Positions 7,799 through 56,118 of a stretch of DNA of 64,000 bases are shown here, piece by piece (the stretch's first letter is position 1; each line of letters opens with the position of its first letter). The stretch covers positions 8,713-72,712 of the forward strand of contig CAZTUQ010000001.1 in the NCBI GenBank assembly GCA_964616865.1, read 5' to 3'. This DNA comes from an uncultured Muribaculaceae bacterium. GTDB lineage: Bacteria; Bacteroidota; Bacteroidia; Bacteroidales; UBA932. Made by a program: the position numbers and the translations under genes. The notes beneath the pieces were generated by a model. That model saw nothing but the letters and a program-made list of their open reading frames with translations. It did no database searches and had not been told where the DNA came from.

Positions 7799-8815
7799 CT
7801 ATGAATGCTCTATTATATCGGTAAGGAAATCCGTCATCTGAAGACCTGCCGTACGCACCATCTTGGGAACGAGCGACGCGCTGGTCATACCGGGTACCGT
7901 ATTGACTTCCAGAAAGTAAAGCCCGTCAGAGGCGAGAATATAGTCCGCTCTGACAACGCCCTTGCACCCAAGATGCTCATATATGCGGACCGTAGTCTCC
8001 TCTACCAGGGAACGCTCGCTGTCCGAGAGCCGTGCAGGGCAGATCTCTTCGCTGTGGCCATTGTACTTGGCATCGTAGTCAAAATACTCATTGTCCGTCA
8101 CTATCTCCACTACCGGAAGTGCCTTGACTCCATTCTCACCGCGCCATACGGCACAAGTGAGTTCGCGTCCGCTGACAGACTGTTCTATAAGTATGGTATC
8201 ACTCTCCGAGAATGCAAAATTGACAGCCTGCACCAGACCATCCGGGGCATCGACACGGGATATTCCGAAACTTGACCCTGCGGTGGTCGGCTTCACGAAC
8301 ACCGGATATTTGAGCCTCTCGGATACCTGTACTGACAATGCCGACAAATCAGCGCCCTTGCGCACAACCATATCGGGGGCGAGCCTGACATCCTCAGCAC
8401 CTTTCAGATAGGCTTTGCAGGTATACTTGTCAAATGCCACAGCAGACACGAAACTACTGCATGAACTATAGGGAATCCCGAGCATCTCCAGATAGCCCTG
8501 CATCTGGCCAGTCTCACCGGGCGCACCATGCTGCATCACATACACATAGTCAAACCTGACTTTCTCCCCATAGACCGACACGGAGAAATCCGTCTTGTCC
8601 ACCACTGGTCTTGCGCCCTCGTCAAATGTCATGCGCATGGCATTGCGGCGTCTCATCGCCACGAGCTGCCATTCGCCGTGTCGCGCATATATTTCATAAA
8701 CATCATAGCGGCTTTCATCTATTCTGGAGGCTGTATATTCTCCGCTCCTGCAGGAGACTTCCGATTCGGAAGAATCACTCCCGTAAATAACCGCAATAGA
8801 ACTGTACTTGCCCAT
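7799..8815 (-). CDS. ddl: D-alanine--D-alanine ligase
   Basis: HGAPGETGQMQG, YPVFVKP..AGSSFG, FDYDAKY, LEVNTVPGMT ATP-grasp motifs. Confidence 0.95.
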   Translation of the reverse strand: MGKYSSIAVIYGSDSSESEVSCRSGEYTASRIDESRYDVYEIYARHGEWQLVAMRRRNAMRMTFDEGARPVVDKTDFSVSVYGEKVRFDYVYVMQHGAPGETGQMQGYLEMLGIPYSSCSSFVSAVAFDKYTCKAYLKGAEDVRLAPDMVVRKGADLSALSVQVSERLKYPVFVKPTTAGSSFGISRVDAPDGLVQAVNFAFSESDTILIEQSVSGRELTCAVWRGENGVKALPVVEIVTDNEYFDYDAKYNGHSEEICPARLSDSERSLVEETTVRIYEHLGCKGVVRADYILASDGLYFLEVNTVPGMTSASLVPKMVRTAGLQMTDFLTDIIEHS

Positions 8816-48746: not shown

Positions 48747-48949
48747 GACTAATTGTATGATAAGTATTTCTAAAATAGAAATAAAAATACAACCAATAAT
48801 TCTCTTGTTACTAAATAGCAAAAAACAAAAACCATTCCGCTATTTTCGGGGATTAATCAAAGAGCGCCTACCCGCATTTACAGATAGACGCCCAGTTTCA
48901 CGCGCATAGCCATACAACACGCATGGCTCCGCAACGAGTCTTTATATCA

Positions 48950-51046
48950 CTATCGGATAATCCCCAGACTGCGGAGCAAAGCCTCCGGTGCAGGATTGTG
49001 TCCGCGGAAGATTCTATAAGACTCCGCCTCATCACGATTGCTGCCCATTTCCAGGATATTGTGACGGAACGATCCGGAGACTTCCGTATTGAAAATCCCC
49101 TTCTCCTCAAAGAGGCTGAACGCGTCTGCTGCAAGCACCTCCGCCCATTTGTAGGCGTAATATCCAGCAGCATATCCTCCGGAGAACAAATGGGTAAATG
49201 CGGTAGAATGGCAGGTGCCGGGGATGGCAGGAAGTACAGAGCAGGGAGCGGCCGCCACATGCTCAAACTCCTCCACGGACTGCTCCGGGACTGCCGTCAC
49301 TGTGTGCCATGCCATGTCCGTATAGCCAAAACCGAGCTGCCTGATATGATAGTAGGCAGATAGATAGTTCTTGGCCGCAACGATGCTGCGTATATATTCC
49401 TCTGGTATAGTCTCCCCTGTCTGCCAGTGCTTGGCAAAACGCTTGAGGTACTCGGGCTCATATCCCCAGTTTTCATTGATCTGGGAGGGCAATTCCACAA
49501 AATCATGAGCAACGCTCGTACCGCAGAGGCTGGTGTAGCGTCCTTTGGCAAGCATTCCATGGAGAGCATGGCCAAATTCATGGAGGAATGTGGTCAATTC
49601 GTCATGGGTCAGCAGCGAAGGGGTATCGCCGGTAGGTTTGGAGAAATTGCATACAATGCTGACAAGCGGTCTACGCTCCACTCCATTCTCGATGCTCTGT
49701 CCACGGAACTCGGTCATCCATGCACCTGCCCTCTTGCTCGGACGGGGATAGAAATCCGCATAGAACAAAGCCAGATGGCTGCCGTCGGCATCCTTGACAT
49801 CATATACCTTGACATCGGGGTGATACCCCGGAATGTCCGTGCGCTCACTGAAACTGACACCATAGAGGGTATTTGCGAGGCCGAATACAGCATTGATACA
49901 GGAGTCGAGACGGAAATAAGGCTTGAGCATACCATCGTTGAGAGAATACAACGAATCCTTGTATTTCTCTGACCAATAGCTGAAATCCCACGGTTGCAAC
50001 TCTTTATCCTCAAATCCGTTGGCACGGGCAAACGCCGTAACCTCCGCAACTTCCTTCTTGGCTGCCGGCATGGCAGGCTCGAGGAGCTGCCTGAGGAATG
50101 ATTCCACCGTAGGTACATCTTTAGCCATCTTGTCCTCCAACTGATAGTCGGCGAATGTCCTGTAGCCAAGCAGCTGTGCCTTGCGAAGCCTCAGACCGAC
50201 TATCTTCTTGACTATCCCGGAGTTGTCAGAATCACCGCCGAGAGCACGGGAATTGTATGCTCTCCAGAGCTGCTCCTTGAGTTCGCGGTCTCCGCTGAAC
50301 TGCATGAACGGCCTGTAACTCGGTGCGCTGAGCGTAAATGTCCATCCGCTCTGCCCTGCCTCCCTGGCAGTCTCCGCCGCAGCCGCCTTGACGAAATCGG
50401 GCAGGTCCGCAATACGGGACTCATCTGTCACATTGAGTGAGAATGCATTGGTGGCGGCAAGAGCATTCCTCGAGAACTCGAGCGTGGCAAGAGAAAGTTC
50501 CTCTGAGACCTTGCTGAATGCCTCTTTGTCCTCCGGAGAGAGATTGGCACCATTGCGTGCAAAAGACTTGTAGGTCTTTTCGAGCAGACGCATCTGATCC
50601 TCTGCCAGACCGAGTCCGTCACGCTGGTCATATACCGCCTTGACACGCTGGAACAGTTTGTCATTGAGCGATATATACATCGAATATTCATTGTCGAGAG
50701 GAGCGACTTCCTCGGCTATAGCCTCCATCTCCGGACTGTTGTCAGCCTCCATTACATTGTAGAATATGCCGGCAACACGCGCGTATGTACTGCCGGAGAA
50801 CTCCAAAGCCTCGATTGTATTGGCAAATGTAGGGGCCTCAGGATTATTTGCGATGGCATCGATTTCCGCCTTGCCCTCCTTGATGCTCTGCTTGAATGCA
50901 GGGAGGTAGTGTTCAGTACGGATATCGTCAAAACAAGGTGCTCCATAAGGGAGCGAGGATTCTTTCAACAGGGGATTTTCCATTGTACAGGCTGTCATTA
51001 ATGCAATCACGGCGACTGCCGCTGCGGAAATGGAGCTACATCTCAT
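48950..51046 (-). CDS. dcp: M3 family metallopeptidase (peptidyl-dipeptidase Dcp), lipoprotein
   Basis: Start 51046 (ATGA overlap), LMTAC lipobox; FLHEFGHALH, DFVELPSQ..ENW, GYYAYKWAE. Confidence 0.92.
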   Translation of the reverse strand: MRCSSISAAAVAVIALMTACTMENPLLKESSLPYGAPCFDDIRTEHYLPAFKQSIKEGKAEIDAIANNPEAPTFANTIEALEFSGSTYARVAGIFYNVMEADNSPEMEAIAEEVAPLDNEYSMYISLNDKLFQRVKAVYDQRDGLGLAEDQMRLLEKTYKSFARNGANLSPEDKEAFSKVSEELSLATLEFSRNALAATNAFSLNVTDESRIADLPDFVKAAAAETAREAGQSGWTFTLSAPSYRPFMQFSGDRELKEQLWRAYNSRALGGDSDNSGIVKKIVGLRLRKAQLLGYRTFADYQLEDKMAKDVPTVESFLRQLLEPAMPAAKKEVAEVTAFARANGFEDKELQPWDFSYWSEKYKDSLYSLNDGMLKPYFRLDSCINAVFGLANTLYGVSFSERTDIPGYHPDVKVYDVKDADGSHLALFYADFYPRPSKRAGAWMTEFRGQSIENGVERRPLVSIVCNFSKPTGDTPSLLTHDELTTFLHEFGHALHGMLAKGRYTSLCGTSVAHDFVELPSQINENWGYEPEYLKRFAKHWQTGETIPEEYIRSIVAAKNYLSAYYHIRQLGFGYTDMAWHTVTAVPEQSVEEFEHVAAAPCSVLPAIPGTCHSTAFTHLFSGGYAAGYYAYKWAEVLAADAFSLFEEKGIFNTEVSGSFRHNILEMGSNRDEAESYRIFRGHNPAPEALLRSLGIIR

Positions 51047-53481
51047 ATCTTTGTCAATTTGTTTTTCTCTTCTTTGCTCGTGCCGGGAGTGGTCTTCCAA
51101 GACTGCGGCTCACGGAATCCAAGCAGGAACTCCTTGACCGCCATACGCTTCTTGCCCGAGAGTTGAAGTTCGTCTATACATACGGCACCGTCGCTTGTGC
51201 GCACTGCCAGCAGGGACTTGCCGTCACTTATGATCTCACCAGGAGCACCGGTATCCGACGGGACATGTGCCGACGCGGAGAATATCTTGAGTTGCAAAGG
51301 TTTCTCGCCCTCATGATATACCTCGGTGTATGCTGCCGGGTAAGGGCTCAGACCTCTGATGAGGTTGCATATATTCACGGTAGTGTCATTCCAGTCGATG
51401 TGGCACAGTTCGCGGGTGAGTTTCGGAGCCGGCTTGAGTTCTTCTGCGCCTTGGATAAAACTGCGCTGCACGCGAGTCTCTACATTGCCCTCGATTATGC
51501 CCTCGACCGTCTCTGCCACCAGACCTGCGCCTATGCCCATCAGTGCATCGTGCACATCCCCGGCAGTAGCCCCTTCGGGAATCCTGTATTCCTGACGGAG
51601 AATGATGCCTCCGGTATCTATATCCTTGTCTATCATGAATGTAGTGACACCGGTCATGCGCTCTCCGTTGATGACTGCCCAATTGATAGGGGCCGCTCCC
51701 CGATACTGGGGCAGGAGTGCGGCGTGCAGGTTGAATGTGCCGAGCCTGGGCATATTCCAGACCTCTTCGGGCAGCATGCGGAACGCCACGACGACAAACA
51801 TGTCAGCCTTGAAATCTGCCAGCTGCCGCAGGAATTCCGGGTCTTTGAGTCTGACCGGCTGGAGTACCGGTATGCCATGTGCGATGGCGAATTTCTTGAC
51901 CGCGCTCTCATTCACCTTGAGACCGCGTCCGCTGGGCTTGTCCGCCACGGTCACCACGCCCACGACATTATAGCCGTCATTTATCAGGCGTTCGAGCGGA
52001 GCGACAGCAAACTCCGGCGTGCCCATATATACAATACGTGTCTTTCTGAATATGCTCATTATCTTACTCTTTATCTTGCGCAGACGGGATGCCAATGTAT
52101 CATTGGAGAACAAAGACGCATCATTGATGGCTTTGTATGTCAGGAACGCCCCTATGGGGCCGAGCACATAGGCGGATATGAATGCACCGCTCAGCGGGTC
52201 AAGAGCGCCGTCCTTGGCCAGTTTGGTACCGGTGATATCCACGACCCAATACAACACAAAGAACAGCACCGAGATGATTGCCGGCACGCCGAGACCGCCC
52301 TTGCGTATAAGAGCACCGAGAGGCGCACCTATAAAGAACATGATGAAGCACGCGAGCGCACCTGCATATTTTTTGAGTATCTCCAGACGCGAGCGCCTCA
52401 GGTAGAATGTGTATTCGTACGCCTCACGGCTGAAATTGTCCATCTCCCCTATCATCTGCTTGGCACGGGAAGCCGCCCTCTCATAGGCATGCTGCTCATC
52501 GCGCCGGCTTTCCCATGTCATGAACTTGTCAGACTGGAAATTGTCCAGCCCCTTGGCGATGAATGCCGTATCGAGCTGCCTATGCTTGGTGAGACTCGCA
52601 TCGGTGACCACCTTGCGGAAGTGTTCGTCGTGAGTCTTTTTCTCCACCTCGGAGAGCGAATCCCTCTGATTGGTCAGCTGACTGATATTCATAGCCTTGG
52701 TCTGTCCGGCAAAGCGGTCGTCCTTGGTCTTCTGGAATGCGTAATTCTCCAGAGGGACTATCAACTGCTGACGGGAGAAATCGACTTTCTGCAGTTGCAG
52801 GGTCGTATCCCGGTATTTCATCTGATTGCTTTCCTGATAGTTTATGCCGCTATACAGGGTGAATGTCAGATAATCCTTGCTGCGGGACATCTTGATACTC
52901 GCGGAGTCCGCCAGAGTGAGTGCTACATTGCCCTTGCTCTGCGAATGGTCGTAGACCATGACATCGCGCATGATGCCGGTATGCTCATCCGTCTCTTCTA
53001 CTCTGAGGATATAGCCGTCTATACCGTCATAGAAAGTACCTGCCGGAATCTTGATCTCGGATTTGGTCTTGCCTATGTCATCGCGCAACATATAAATCTT
53101 GTTGTACGAATACGGCACCAGATTGTTGGAGGCATAGAACGCACCGACGCTGATGGCCGCACTGGCTATAATCAGAGGGGTCATCACGCGGGAGAACGAT
53201 ACGCCGGAGGCCTTCATGGCCATCATCTCGTTATTCTCCGACAACTGTCCCATGACCATCATGGAAGCGAGCAGAGTGGACAACGGCAGAGCCAGAGGCA
53301 GCACCGTACAGCATCCCCACAGCAGAAACTCGGCGATAATGCTCAATTCCAGCCCCTTACCGACAAGTTCGTCGATATAGAGCCACAGAAACTGCATCAT
53401 CAGGATGAATATCACCACAAATAGGATCGCGACAAACGGTCCTATAAATGATGACAGTATGAATCGGTCGAGCCTTTTCAA
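51043..53481 (-). CDS. fmt: Fusion protein: LptF/LptG-family LPS export permease (aa 1 to about 474) plus methionyl-tRNA formyltransferase (about aa 475-812)
   Basis: One uninterrupted 812-aa frame. N-part: LDRFILSSFIGPF, LSENNEMMAMKASGVS, FFIGAPLGALIRKGG. C-part: RIVYMGTPEFA, DKPSGRG, VVAF, FNLHAALLPQYRGAAPINWAVINGE, DTG. Confidence 0.9.
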   Translation of the reverse strand: MKRLDRFILSSFIGPFVAILFVVIFILMMQFLWLYIDELVGKGLELSIIAEFLLWGCCTVLPLALPLSTLLASMMVMGQLSENNEMMAMKASGVSFSRVMTPLIIASAAISVGAFYASNNLVPYSYNKIYMLRDDIGKTKSEIKIPAGTFYDGIDGYILRVEETDEHTGIMRDVMVYDHSQSKGNVALTLADSASIKMSRSKDYLTFTLYSGINYQESNQMKYRDTTLQLQKVDFSRQQLIVPLENYAFQKTKDDRFAGQTKAMNISQLTNQRDSLSEVEKKTHDEHFRKVVTDASLTKHRQLDTAFIAKGLDNFQSDKFMTWESRRDEQHAYERAASRAKQMIGEMDNFSREAYEYTFYLRRSRLEILKKYAGALACFIMFFIGAPLGALIRKGGLGVPAIISVLFFVLYWVVDITGTKLAKDGALDPLSGAFISAYVLGPIGAFLTYKAINDASLFSNDTLASRLRKIKSKIMSIFRKTRIVYMGTPEFAVAPLERLINDGYNVVGVVTVADKPSGRGLKVNESAVKKFAIAHGIPVLQPVRLKDPEFLRQLADFKADMFVVVAFRMLPEEVWNMPRLGTFNLHAALLPQYRGAAPINWAVINGERMTGVTTFMIDKDIDTGGIILRQEYRIPEGATAGDVHDALMGIGAGLVAETVEGIIEGNVETRVQRSFIQGAEELKPAPKLTRELCHIDWNDTTVNICNLIRGLSPYPAAYTEVYHEGEKPLQLKIFSASAHVPSDTGAPGEIISDGKSLLAVRTSDGAVCIDELQLSGKKRMAVKEFLLGFREPQSWKTTPGTSKEEKNKLTKI

Positions 53482-53490
53482 AGCGGAACT

Positions 53491-56118
53491 TTATCTTGTG
53501 GCGAGTTCGACGAGTTTCTCAAGTGCCTCGCCCACACCGTCAGAGTTGCGGCCTCCGGCTGTAGCGAGCCCGGGCTGTCCGCCACCGCCTCCCTGTATGA
53601 ACTTGGCGGCTTCGCGGATGTCAGCACCGGCATTCTTGCCCTTAGCCACGAGATCGGGCGAATACATGAGCAGGAGCTGCGGCTTGCCATCCGACTCGGA
53701 TGCGGCGGCCAATGCGGTATTCTGCAGCTCTTTCTGCAGGAGGATGGCGGCCTCTCTCAACATGGCAGGGTCAAAATTCTCACTGGTGGAACTCCTCAAC
53801 ACTATGAGTTTGACGCCGTCGACCTCTTTGGCCTTGGCTGAAAGTTCCGAAGCGAGGTCTGCAGCCTTGCGCCTGGCAAATTCCTCGGCCTGCTTTTTCA
53901 GGTCCGCATTCTCAGAGACGAGTTTGCGTATGGCACCGGCGAGGTCGGGGACATTGTTGAAGAATGACCTTGCGGTCCTGAGGGTCTCCTGCACAGTTTC
54001 AGAATATATTTCCGCCTCTTCCCCGGTCACCGCCTCTATACGGCGCACTCCGGCAGCGATGGCGGATTCGCTCAATATCTGGAAATATCCGATGTTACCG
54101 GTCGCCGATGCATGGCATCCGCCGCAGAGTTCGACGCTCGGGCCGAACTTGACGACGCGCACCTTGTCACCATATTTCTCACCGAAGAGGGCGATTGCAC
54201 CCATGGCATTGGCCTCCTCCATAGTGGCGTCACGCTTCTCCTCGAGGGGACTGTTGGCGCGTATGGCGGCATTGACCATGTGCTCGACCTCACGGATCTG
54301 CGCATCAGTGAGTTTCTCGAAATGAGAGAAGTCAAAACGCAGATACTTGTCGCATACAAACGAGCCTTTCTGCTCCACATGAGTACCGAGGACCTTGCGC
54401 AGAGCAGCATCCAACAAATGGGTGGCGGTATGGTTGCCTGCAATCTTATTCCTGCGCTGCTCGTCCACAACGAGTTCAAACTCACCCTTGCAATTCTCAG
54501 GCAGGCGCTCTGCTATATGGACGGTCAGTCCGTTGTCCCTGATGGTGTCGAGAATCTTTATCTTTTCTCCGTCAGCGGATACTATATAACCGGTATCTCC
54601 TACCTCGCCGCCCATTTCTCCGTAGAAAGGAGTACGGTCAAATACGAGTTGGAGCATTTCTTTCTTTTTCTGCACCACGGTACGCTGCCTGAGCAGGCGT
54701 GCGCCATGGACTGTGGTATTGTCATAGCCGACGAACTCGGACACTCCGCTGGCGTATTCCACCCAGTCGCCGAATTCGTTGGAGGTCGCATTGCGGGCAC
54801 GCTCCTTCTGCTTCTGCAATTCCGCCTCAAATCCTTCCAGATCAACCTTATATCCATGCTCTGTAGCGATGAGTTCTATCAGGTCAAGAGGAAATCCGAA
54901 TGTATCGTAGAGTTTGAATGCGTCCGCACCGGAGATAAGTTTTGTGGCGGATGCGGCTGCCATGCAGTCGTCCATCAGTCTGATACCACGCTCGAGAGTG
55001 CGCAGGAACGCATTCTCCTCTTCGCGGATGACATTCTCGATGAGTTTCTGCTGATGCTTGAGCTCGGGATAGGCATCTCCCATGTCGCTGACGAGTTGGG
55101 GGACGAGACGGCAGAGGAACGGCTCGTTGAAGCCGAGGAATGTATAGCCGTAACGGACAGCACGGCGCAGGATGCGGCGGATGACATATCCGGCCTTGAC
55201 ATTGCCCGGCAACTGGCCGTCGGCAATGCTGAAACTGATGGCGCGGATATGGTCTGCAATAACGCGCATTGCCACATCTGCGTCTTCGTTATCTCCGTAG
55301 ACATGGCCGCTGAATTCTCCGATGCGGGCTATCATACCGCTGAACACATCGGTGTCGTAGTTGCTGTTCTTGCCCTGCAGCACGGCGCAGAGGCGCTCAA
55401 ATCCCATACCGGTGTCGATATTCCTTGCTGGCAGGTTTTCCAGATGGCCGTCTGCCATGCGCATGTACTGCATGAACACGATATTCCATATCTCAATGAC
55501 ATGTGGATGGTCATGATTGACCAGTTCGCGCGCAGGCACGCCATCGGCTTTCTCCTCAGGAGTACGGATATCTATATGGATTTCCGAGCAGGGACCGCAT
55601 GGGCCGGTATCTCCCATTTCCCAGAAATTATCGTGCTTGTTGCCGAGGAGGATATGGTCTTCGGGGAGATGTTTGAGCCATGCGGCCTTGGCCTCTTCAT
55701 CAAGAGCGGTGCCGTCTTCTGCAGAGCCCTCAAAGACAGTGGCATAGAGGAGGGACTTGTCGATTTTGTACACATCCGTGAGGAGTTCCCACGCCCAGTC
55801 GATAGCCTCTGTCTTGAAATAGTCGCCGAAACTCCAGTTGCCGAGCATCTCAAACATGGTGTGATGATAGGTATCGTGTCCCACCTCTTCCAGATCGTTG
55901 TGCTTGCCGCTCACGCGGAGACATTTCTGGGAATCCGTCGCCCTGTTGTATTTGCGCTCGGCGTTGCCGAGGAATATATCCTTGAACTGGTTCATGCCGG
56001 CGTTGGTAAACATCAGCGTCGGATCGTTCTTAACTACCATAGGTGCACTCGGCACCACGGTGTGTCCCTTGCTCGCAAAGAAATCGAGGAACTGCTGGCG
56101 TATCTCTTTTGAAGTCAT
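53491..56118 (-). CDS. alaS: Alanine--tRNA ligase
   Basis: Start 56118, [14 protein letters not shown]; [52 protein letters not shown]. Confidence 0.98.

Follow-up and report, generated by a model that had tools for sequence, protein, structure and literature searches.

The usual view of methionyl-tRNA formyltransferase (Fmt) is that of an enzyme free in the cytosol, and the Fmt proteins of known structure, such as those of E. coli (PDB entries 1FMT and 2FMT) and B. anthracis (4IQF), are free soluble monomers of ~315 amino acids. LptF, of which chain F of the Enterobacter cloacae structure 6MIT is a solved example, has its C-terminus in the cytoplasm, as is known from structures of the lipopolysaccharide (LPS) extractor LptB2FG. 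In ArnA an Fmt-fold formyltransferase is joined to an envelope- and LPS-related partner, with both halves acting in one sugar-nucleotide pathway. In a stretch of 64,000 nucleotides (the window; positions 8,713 to 72,712 of contig CAZTUQ010000001.1, assembly GCA_964616865.1) from an uncultured Muribaculaceae bacterium of the Bacteroidales family UBA932, lptF and fmt form a single open reading frame (ORF), and this lptF::fmt fusion, unlike ArnA, joins a tRNA enzyme to an unrelated process. Literature searches on LptF with formyltransferase, and on Fmt gene fusion with a permease, returned no description of the fusion, and public records call these proteins of ~800 amino acids only 'methionyl-tRNA formyltransferase'. 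The fusion is genuine and is likely to be a stable bifunctional inner-membrane protein, born by small insertions or deletions (indels) in overlapping lptF and fmt genes, with each half in its usual job.

The fusion ORF occupies positions 51043..53481 on the minus strand and consists of 812 codons followed by a TGA stop, which the ORF analysis reads as one open frame without interruption. It begins with a TTG codon at 53481; of the 42 relatives whose N-terminal motif was found, 34 have ATG at the homologous position. Pfam assigns residues 6-449 to the LptF_LptG domain (E 2.9e-65), residues 482-647 to Formyl_trans_N and residues 687-789 to Formyl_trans_C. The LptF-type permease domain (52135..53466, minus strand), with six transmembrane (TM) helices, a coupling helix and a periplasmic β-jellyroll, is followed by a basic linker of 29 residues (residues 453-481; 52039..52125, minus strand), delineated by an AlphaFold2 (AF2) model and the hydrophobic moment, and by the Fmt domain (residues 482-792; 51106..52038, minus strand), identified by NCBIfam model TIGR00460, a PDB search and Foldseek, with a tail of 20 residues behind it. 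The linker sequence reads ...SRLRKIKSKIMSIFRKTRIVYMGTP and the junction from LptF to Fmt reads ...YKAINDASLFSNDTLASRLRKIKSKIMSIFRKTRIVYMGTPEF... An in-frame ATG, Met475 (52057..52059, minus strand), falls where the ancestral fmt gene had its start codon; it has an A-rich upstream context and is a possible internal start. The first-pass annotation had proposed an in-frame fusion of an LptF/G permease to Fmt with both halves complete and their motifs intact. The 812-codon ORF, its Pfam and NCBIfam domains and the linker, which is as first read, bear out the fusion, and the completeness of the halves is confirmed by full domain matches and by invariant residues in 53 fused proteins.

The C-terminal half scores 238.8 bits against the fmt model TIGR00460, above its cutoff of 201.5, with residues 482-792 matching profile positions 2-307 of 315. 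It holds both PF00551 and PF02911, i.e., the N-terminal formyltransferase and the C-terminal OB-like tRNA-binding domain. Solved Fmt structures match with E-values of 7e-58 to 1e-50 in the PDB search, in which ArnA reaches 2.5e-28 at best, and Foldseek superimposes the domain on 4IQF, 1FMT and 2FMT with TM-scores (on the target) of 0.84-0.88. The fused domain is alike to the E. coli and B. anthracis enzymes in its two-domain fold, its catalytic and tRNA-binding residues and a sequence identity of ~35-37%, but it has no N-terminus of its own and is hung from the last TM helix of LptF, with neither signal peptide nor cleavage site. Residues N584, H586 and D622 are invariant among the 53 fused proteins (63-87% identity) and their motifs align with those of the solved Fmt structures; we take them to be the catalytic Asn, His and Asp, equivalent to E. 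coli N108, H110 and D146, in the N-x-H-x-x-L-L-P-x-x-R-G and D-T-G motifs. The tRNA loop DKPSGRG, of which D514, K515, G518, R519 and G520 are invariant in the same set, aligns with DRPVGR / DRPAGRG of the solved Fmt proteins (P-A-G-R-G in E. coli), and the C-terminal basic motif GKKR has G776, K777 and R779 invariant. As judged from these sequence features, the fused domain would formylate Met-tRNAfMet.

In the N-terminal half, the match to PF03739 runs over profile positions 1-352 of 353. The fused permease scores 147 bits against the NCBIfam LptF model (TIGR04407) and 107 bits against the LptG model. Because 147 bits lies below the LptF equivalog cutoff of 230 yet above the LptG score, the fused permease is an LptF-like member of the LptF/LptG family, and not an equivalog by the NCBI threshold. 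The coupling-helix residue E85, presumably the equivalent of E84 in E. coli LptF, is invariant among the 53 fused proteins, and Foldseek matches 6mit_F (LptF) with an E-value of 5.8e-13. The permease resembles the solved Enterobacter cloacae LptF in its full PF03739 domain, six TM helices, β-jellyroll and coupling-helix Glu; it differs in being ~16% identical to it and in having a helical insertion of ~90 amino acids and a cytoplasmic extension of 360 residues that carries Fmt. The insertion, which is absent from the Pfam and NCBIfam models, consists of charged, mostly helical residues (~266-360; ~52400-52685 of the window) between the jellyroll and TM4; it is also aligned in unfused Bacteroidota LptF homologues of 480-700 amino acids and thus is a lineage feature. 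LPS extraction by the fused LptF is likewise a predicted activity.

The AF2 model (pLDDT 78.9) shows the LptF helices, with the jellyroll strands at residues 157-243 between TM3 and TM4, and a standard Fmt. Helix TM6 (residues 435-452) is succeeded by a low-confidence hinge (455-463), a helix (462-478) and strand β1 of Fmt (482-487). Helix 462-478 has the highest hydrophobic moment of the whole protein and a net charge of +6, and in the model it fits a tether at the cytoplasmic membrane surface. The pTM of 0.45 gives no confident contact between the domains, and Fmt is not predicted to dock on LptF in a fixed way. By analogy with the LptB2FG topology the Fmt domain would face the cytoplasm, as the first-pass annotation held, and its tethering to LptB2FG is a reasonable supposition from the sequence.

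The same architecture is found in many relatives. A search of 5.8 billion proteins gave 5,280 matches, and all 120 that are listed hold all three domains, with lengths of 791-836 amino acids and identities from 97% down to 64%. Eighty species loci (60-98% identity) match over both halves, residues ~1-800, and each has a single longest frame of ~800-890 codons, with the Fmt N-terminal motif past residue 380. An independent metagenome-assembled genome (MAG; L041, 98% identity) and a protein cluster with 22 member sequences (P0001, 97% identity) have the identical in-frame junction. Most records of the loci bear the title Candidatus Cryptobacteroides sp. or uncultured Bacteroidales, and the fused loci come from samples of goat, yak, deer, sheep, buffalo, horse and Hadza human gut. 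Six contigs with 63-67% identity (L042, L084, L085, L090, L108 and L113) are titled Bulleidia sp., Butyricicoccaceae, Treponemataceae, Anaerovoracaceae or Lachnospiraceae; all belong to one 'cleanbin' series, and these bins are probably taxonomically mislabelled. The first-pass annotation had suggested looking for LptF+Fmt proteins of ~800 amino acids in related genomes, which are now known from at least 120 clusters and 80 species genomes, and for a second copy of fmt, which the source genome does not contain.

The fused gene is the only fmt in the source genome (1.82 Mb, 98.4% complete), and each fused genome of the family sample likewise has just one. Two family genomes, G203 and G344, show two fmt matches each at E < 1e-40, which could be a true duplication, or MAG contamination or strain heterogeneity. 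The source genome holds two PF03739 genes, the fused one and a free one of 361 amino acids; the latter scores 169 bits with the LptG model vs 124 bits with the LptF model, all four LptF/LptG scores of the two genes being below the equivalog cutoffs. A second LptF-like permease was not found in the source genome, the other PF03739 gene being LptG-like. LptB is present, with 352.7 bits for TIGR04406 against a cutoff of 240. The genome further contains two peptide deformylase genes (def, PF01327; G000:C6:30343-30813 and G000:C44:2046-2495, G000 being the source genome) and one tRNA-Met(CAT) of the initiator type, with a C1:U72 mismatch and a GGG/CCC anticodon stem.

The origin of the fusion can be read from unfused relatives. 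In each of the 15 family genomes fetched first, whether fused or unfused, lptF immediately precedes fmt on the same strand. In most unfused pairs lptF and fmt share 4-31 nt that are read in different frames, and in a minority they are separated by gaps of 5-179 nt; examples of an overlap are G206, with an ATGA overlap, and G152, in which the fmt ATG lies 17 nt inside lptF. In the fused genomes the frames of lptF and fmt coincide and no stop stands between them. In genus g200 the unfused G258 reads AAACGTGACTAATCCG, with the lptF TAA interleaved with the fmt GTG, and in the fused G310 ~13 nt are deleted relative to G258, such that both the lptF TAA and the fmt GTG are gone. Unfused relatives show an LptF tail that is similar to the fusion linker. 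Since a small deletion of this kind removes the lptF stop and the fmt start, the linker is LptF's own cytoplasmic tail joined to the first residues of Fmt. The linker is of constant length and has a conserved pattern within the genus; linkers are alike inside fused clades and unrelated between clades, which fits independent fusion events. The loss of a stop/start overlap between coupled neighbour genes is the general 'Rosetta-stone' mechanism of gene fusion. The present case is alike in its ancestral overlaps of 4-31 nt, the small frame-joining indel and the old start Met kept inside, but differs in that the same pair was joined at least five times in one family and in that it concerns the sole copies of two housekeeping functions.

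The range of the fusion was delimited by reading the fused state of 146 family genomes from the length of the open frame around fmt. Fused genes occur in 44-46 of these genomes, over ~13 of the 37 genera. Genera g169 and g200 are mixed, with fused and unfused members, and in seven genera of the family lptF does not adjoin fmt. On a maximum-likelihood tree of 63 LptF+Fmt concatenates, from which the junction columns were taken out, the state changes at least five times, and the well-supported branches alone force five changes; label shuffles average 19.9 changes, and 0 of 500 are as low as observed. Two of the loci show minor boundary effects: a TAA is reported inside the fmt match of G205 (L013), whereas the in-frame reading of L013 shows none up to the normal end, and the tblastn match of G224 (L126) extends 5 nt beyond the stop.

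Among the other Bacteroidales, 17 of 20 families have no lptF upstream of fmt, in one family the genes are adjacent but separate, and in two they lie 1.3-1.7 kb apart. An order sample of 201 genomes contains the long frame only in the source genome and a congener, among ~150 fmt matches listed, and in a phylum sample of 401 Bacteroidota genomes a single match over both halves is found only in the source genome. Among 1.84 billion cluster representatives at 50% identity, three full-length fusions are listed (63%, 49% and 45% identity), together with a few fragments that span the junction. All matches listed below 702 bits in this set are LptF alone or Fmt alone, and a distant fusion, which would score ~590 bits, is not among the matches listed. 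Elsewhere in the Bacteroidota, fmt is found in open frames of 522-948 amino acids without LptF (G535:C2:261846-262793, G404:C35:310701-311660, G541:C46:24895-25791, G624:C20:100719-101666 and G135:C24:131560-132504), which could be fmt fusions of another kind or just upstream sequence that happens to be open.

In the window, the fusion gene is flanked by other genes on the minus strand. The gene for alanyl-tRNA synthetase, alaS (53491..56118), has its stop 9 nt upstream of the fusion start and is the first of an alaS-lptF-fmt trio. In 13 of the 15 family loci (L004-L018) alaS is the immediate upstream neighbour of lptF, the exceptions being G258, with a weak match ~2.1 kb upstream, and G310, with none. 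In this conserved trio the LPS permease sits between two translation genes. Downstream, the ORF list and its translation give an M3-family peptidase with a lipoprotein-like N-terminus (MRCSSIS...; 48950..51046), a position that is not conserved in relatives. The TGA of the fusion overlaps the ATG of the peptidase gene in an ATGA (51043..51046, minus strand), the same kind of stop/start overlap as the one ancestral to the lptF-fmt fusion, which indicates tight gene packing. Just past the peptidase gene, a hairpin scan locates the strongest terminator-like hairpin on the strand (14 pairs; 48862..48893, minus strand), which is the probable end of the transcription unit. A sigma-70 promoter scan gave 9 matches vs 7 expected; Bacteroidota use other promoters.

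There is next to no probability that the fusion is an artefact of assembly or sequencing, or a pseudogene left by a recent frameshift. It is true that the source genome is a MAG, but the in-frame junction is also present in L041 and P0001, which are independent assemblies from the same species, in all 120 listed clusters and in all 80 species, and the linker is conserved at constant length; an assembly error is untenable because independent assemblies share the junction. It is also highly improbable that the C-terminal domain is an ArnA-like sugar or lipid A N-formyltransferase that acts on LPS precursors at the exporter. It has its fold and Pfam domains in common with ArnA and its partner is an LPS protein, but it passes the TIGR00460 cutoff while scoring only 133 bits against the ArnA model NF005998 (cutoff 777), its best PDB match is Fmt (7e-58) rather than ArnA (2.5e-28), and its Fmt-specific KPSGRG tRNA loop and C-terminal GKKR are invariant. 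In addition, sister genera carry the orthologue of this domain as a free fmt, and the genome, which retains two def genes and the initiator tRNA, has no other candidate for fmt. An identity as an ArnA-type or sugar formyltransferase was rejected, as model scores and invariant tRNA motifs favour Fmt. A further alternative is a dual output, in which the fused ORF is translated but the key Fmt is a free protein of 338 residues starting at Met475 (ATG 52059-52057), with the fused form as a by-product. This is rather unlikely, although the codon has a start-like context. The 18 nt before Met475, AAGATAAAGAGTAAGATA, are 61% A with an A at -3, and only 0.08% of 12,321 internal in-frame ATGs are as A-rich; a start-vs-internal weight matrix gives 3.12, where the median is 2.02 for starts and -1.93 for internal ATGs. 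Bacteroidota start translation without a Shine-Dalgarno sequence, via A-rich and A(-3) contexts (PMC6847099). Met475 is aligned to the start Met of unfused relatives, an in-frame linker ATG is kept in 58 of 80 congeners, and congeners with an ATG at the Met475 column are richer in upstream A (52.5% vs 37.4%, t = 6). On the other hand, ATG is present at this column in 46 of the 80 congeners and absent in 34, and in 12 of the 80 the 15 codons before the Fmt core include neither ATG nor GTG nor TTG. Within the genus the column switched to or from ATG at least 12 times, G310, G202 and G222 from other fused genera have no linker Met, and the A-richness is confounded by the conserved Lys-rich amphipathic peptide. 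A phylogenetically independent-pairs test of ATG vs A-richness, underpowered with its 10 pairs, has a median p of 0.5. Because the start in the linker is absent or not conserved, many species must get their Fmt from the fusion protein; in the source species a free product may be made as well.

Release of a soluble Fmt could also follow translation of the whole chain, by a protease that cuts in the hinge (~455-463). Such a polyprotein is very unlikely: the flexible low-confidence hinge directly after TM6 would suit it, but no conserved cleavage motif is present, the hinge and linker sequences differ between fused clades, and no dedicated protease gene is associated with the locus. Only slightly less doubtful is an adaptive coupling, in which the sole Fmt is tethered to LptB2FG and selected as a link of initiator-tRNA formylation, or of membrane-proximal translation, to envelope growth; in a variant, the Fmt domain modulates LptB2FG. 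The at least five independent fusions with their retention over whole genera, the linker of constant length that is conserved in the genus, and the role of the fused gene as sole source of both functions are consistent with such a coupling. However, the two genes stay apart in sister species and in entire genera of the family, two genera are mixed, and lptF does not lie beside fmt in 17 of the 20 other Bacteroidales families. No fusion outside the source genome occurs in the phylum sample, nor, past close relatives, among the global representatives listed. Furthermore, the linkers are wholly different between independent fusions, which indicates that no specific geometry is required, and the AF2 model, at a pTM of 0.45, shows no confident interdomain contact. 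No functional coupling is needed, because mutational opportunity and tolerance explain the pattern. The first-pass annotation had proposed here a candidate for an undescribed system, one that would link formylation to envelope biogenesis or membrane-localised translation. The fusion itself was indeed not found described in the literature, but a dedicated system is unsupported, given the restriction to one family, the at least five trivial indel origins and the separate genes in sister species. If the coupling were nevertheless true, formylation would be confined to the inner membrane face, or Fmt dosage would be tied 1:1 to the LPS exporter; initiation capacity would be coupled to outer-membrane growth, and the recurrent fusions would represent repeated selection.

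The preferred reading thus remains that of a stable bifunctional inner-membrane protein that arose by small indels. Some points weigh against it. All genomes are MAGs, and the singletons G310, G224 and G205 could include assembly errors, as large clades cannot; in view of the start-like context of Met475, some or most of the active Fmt in this organism could be a free protein of 38 kDa; and at least five long-lasting independent fusions could reflect positive selection over mere tolerance. Under the preferred reading, the starting point would be the family's tight alaS-lptF-fmt operon, where lptF ends a few bases inside fmt, in a different frame. A small indel would then remove the stop/start overlap and join the frames. 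Such joining occurred at least five times within the family, and its product was retained through whole genera. The N-terminal 452 residues would serve as the LptF subunit of the LptB2FG LPS extractor, the basic amphipathic cytoplasmic tail of LptF would form a tether of ~30 residues, and the C-terminal 330 residues would be an ordinary Fmt that works from the cytoplasmic side of the membrane to formylate Met-tRNAfMet. The fusion would be tolerated, or mildly favoured; a modest advantage, such as assured translation of fmt without Shine-Dalgarno-guided re-initiation, is plausible. The ORF, its domains and their conservation, the sole-copy status, the ancestral overlap and the recurrence are seen directly in the sequences; we infer translation as a single chain of ~90 kDa, membrane tethering, activity of both halves and neutrality of the fusion.

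The fusion has consequences for how these genomes are read and for the biology of the lineage. Because the sole LptF is hidden by its annotation, surveys of Lpt genes could wrongly score LptF as missing. The repeated joining of the overlapping lptF and fmt genes is a clean, datable case of gene fusion in bacteria without Shine-Dalgarno sequences, with the intermediates alive in sister species. An abundant lineage of the gut and rumen, Cryptobacteroides with its related genera, seems to depend on a membrane-anchored Fmt alone. Such a lineage would serve as a natural experiment: it would show that initiator tRNA can be formylated by an enzyme tethered to the membrane and that a cytoplasmic passenger of 35 kDa beside LptB is tolerated by LptF.

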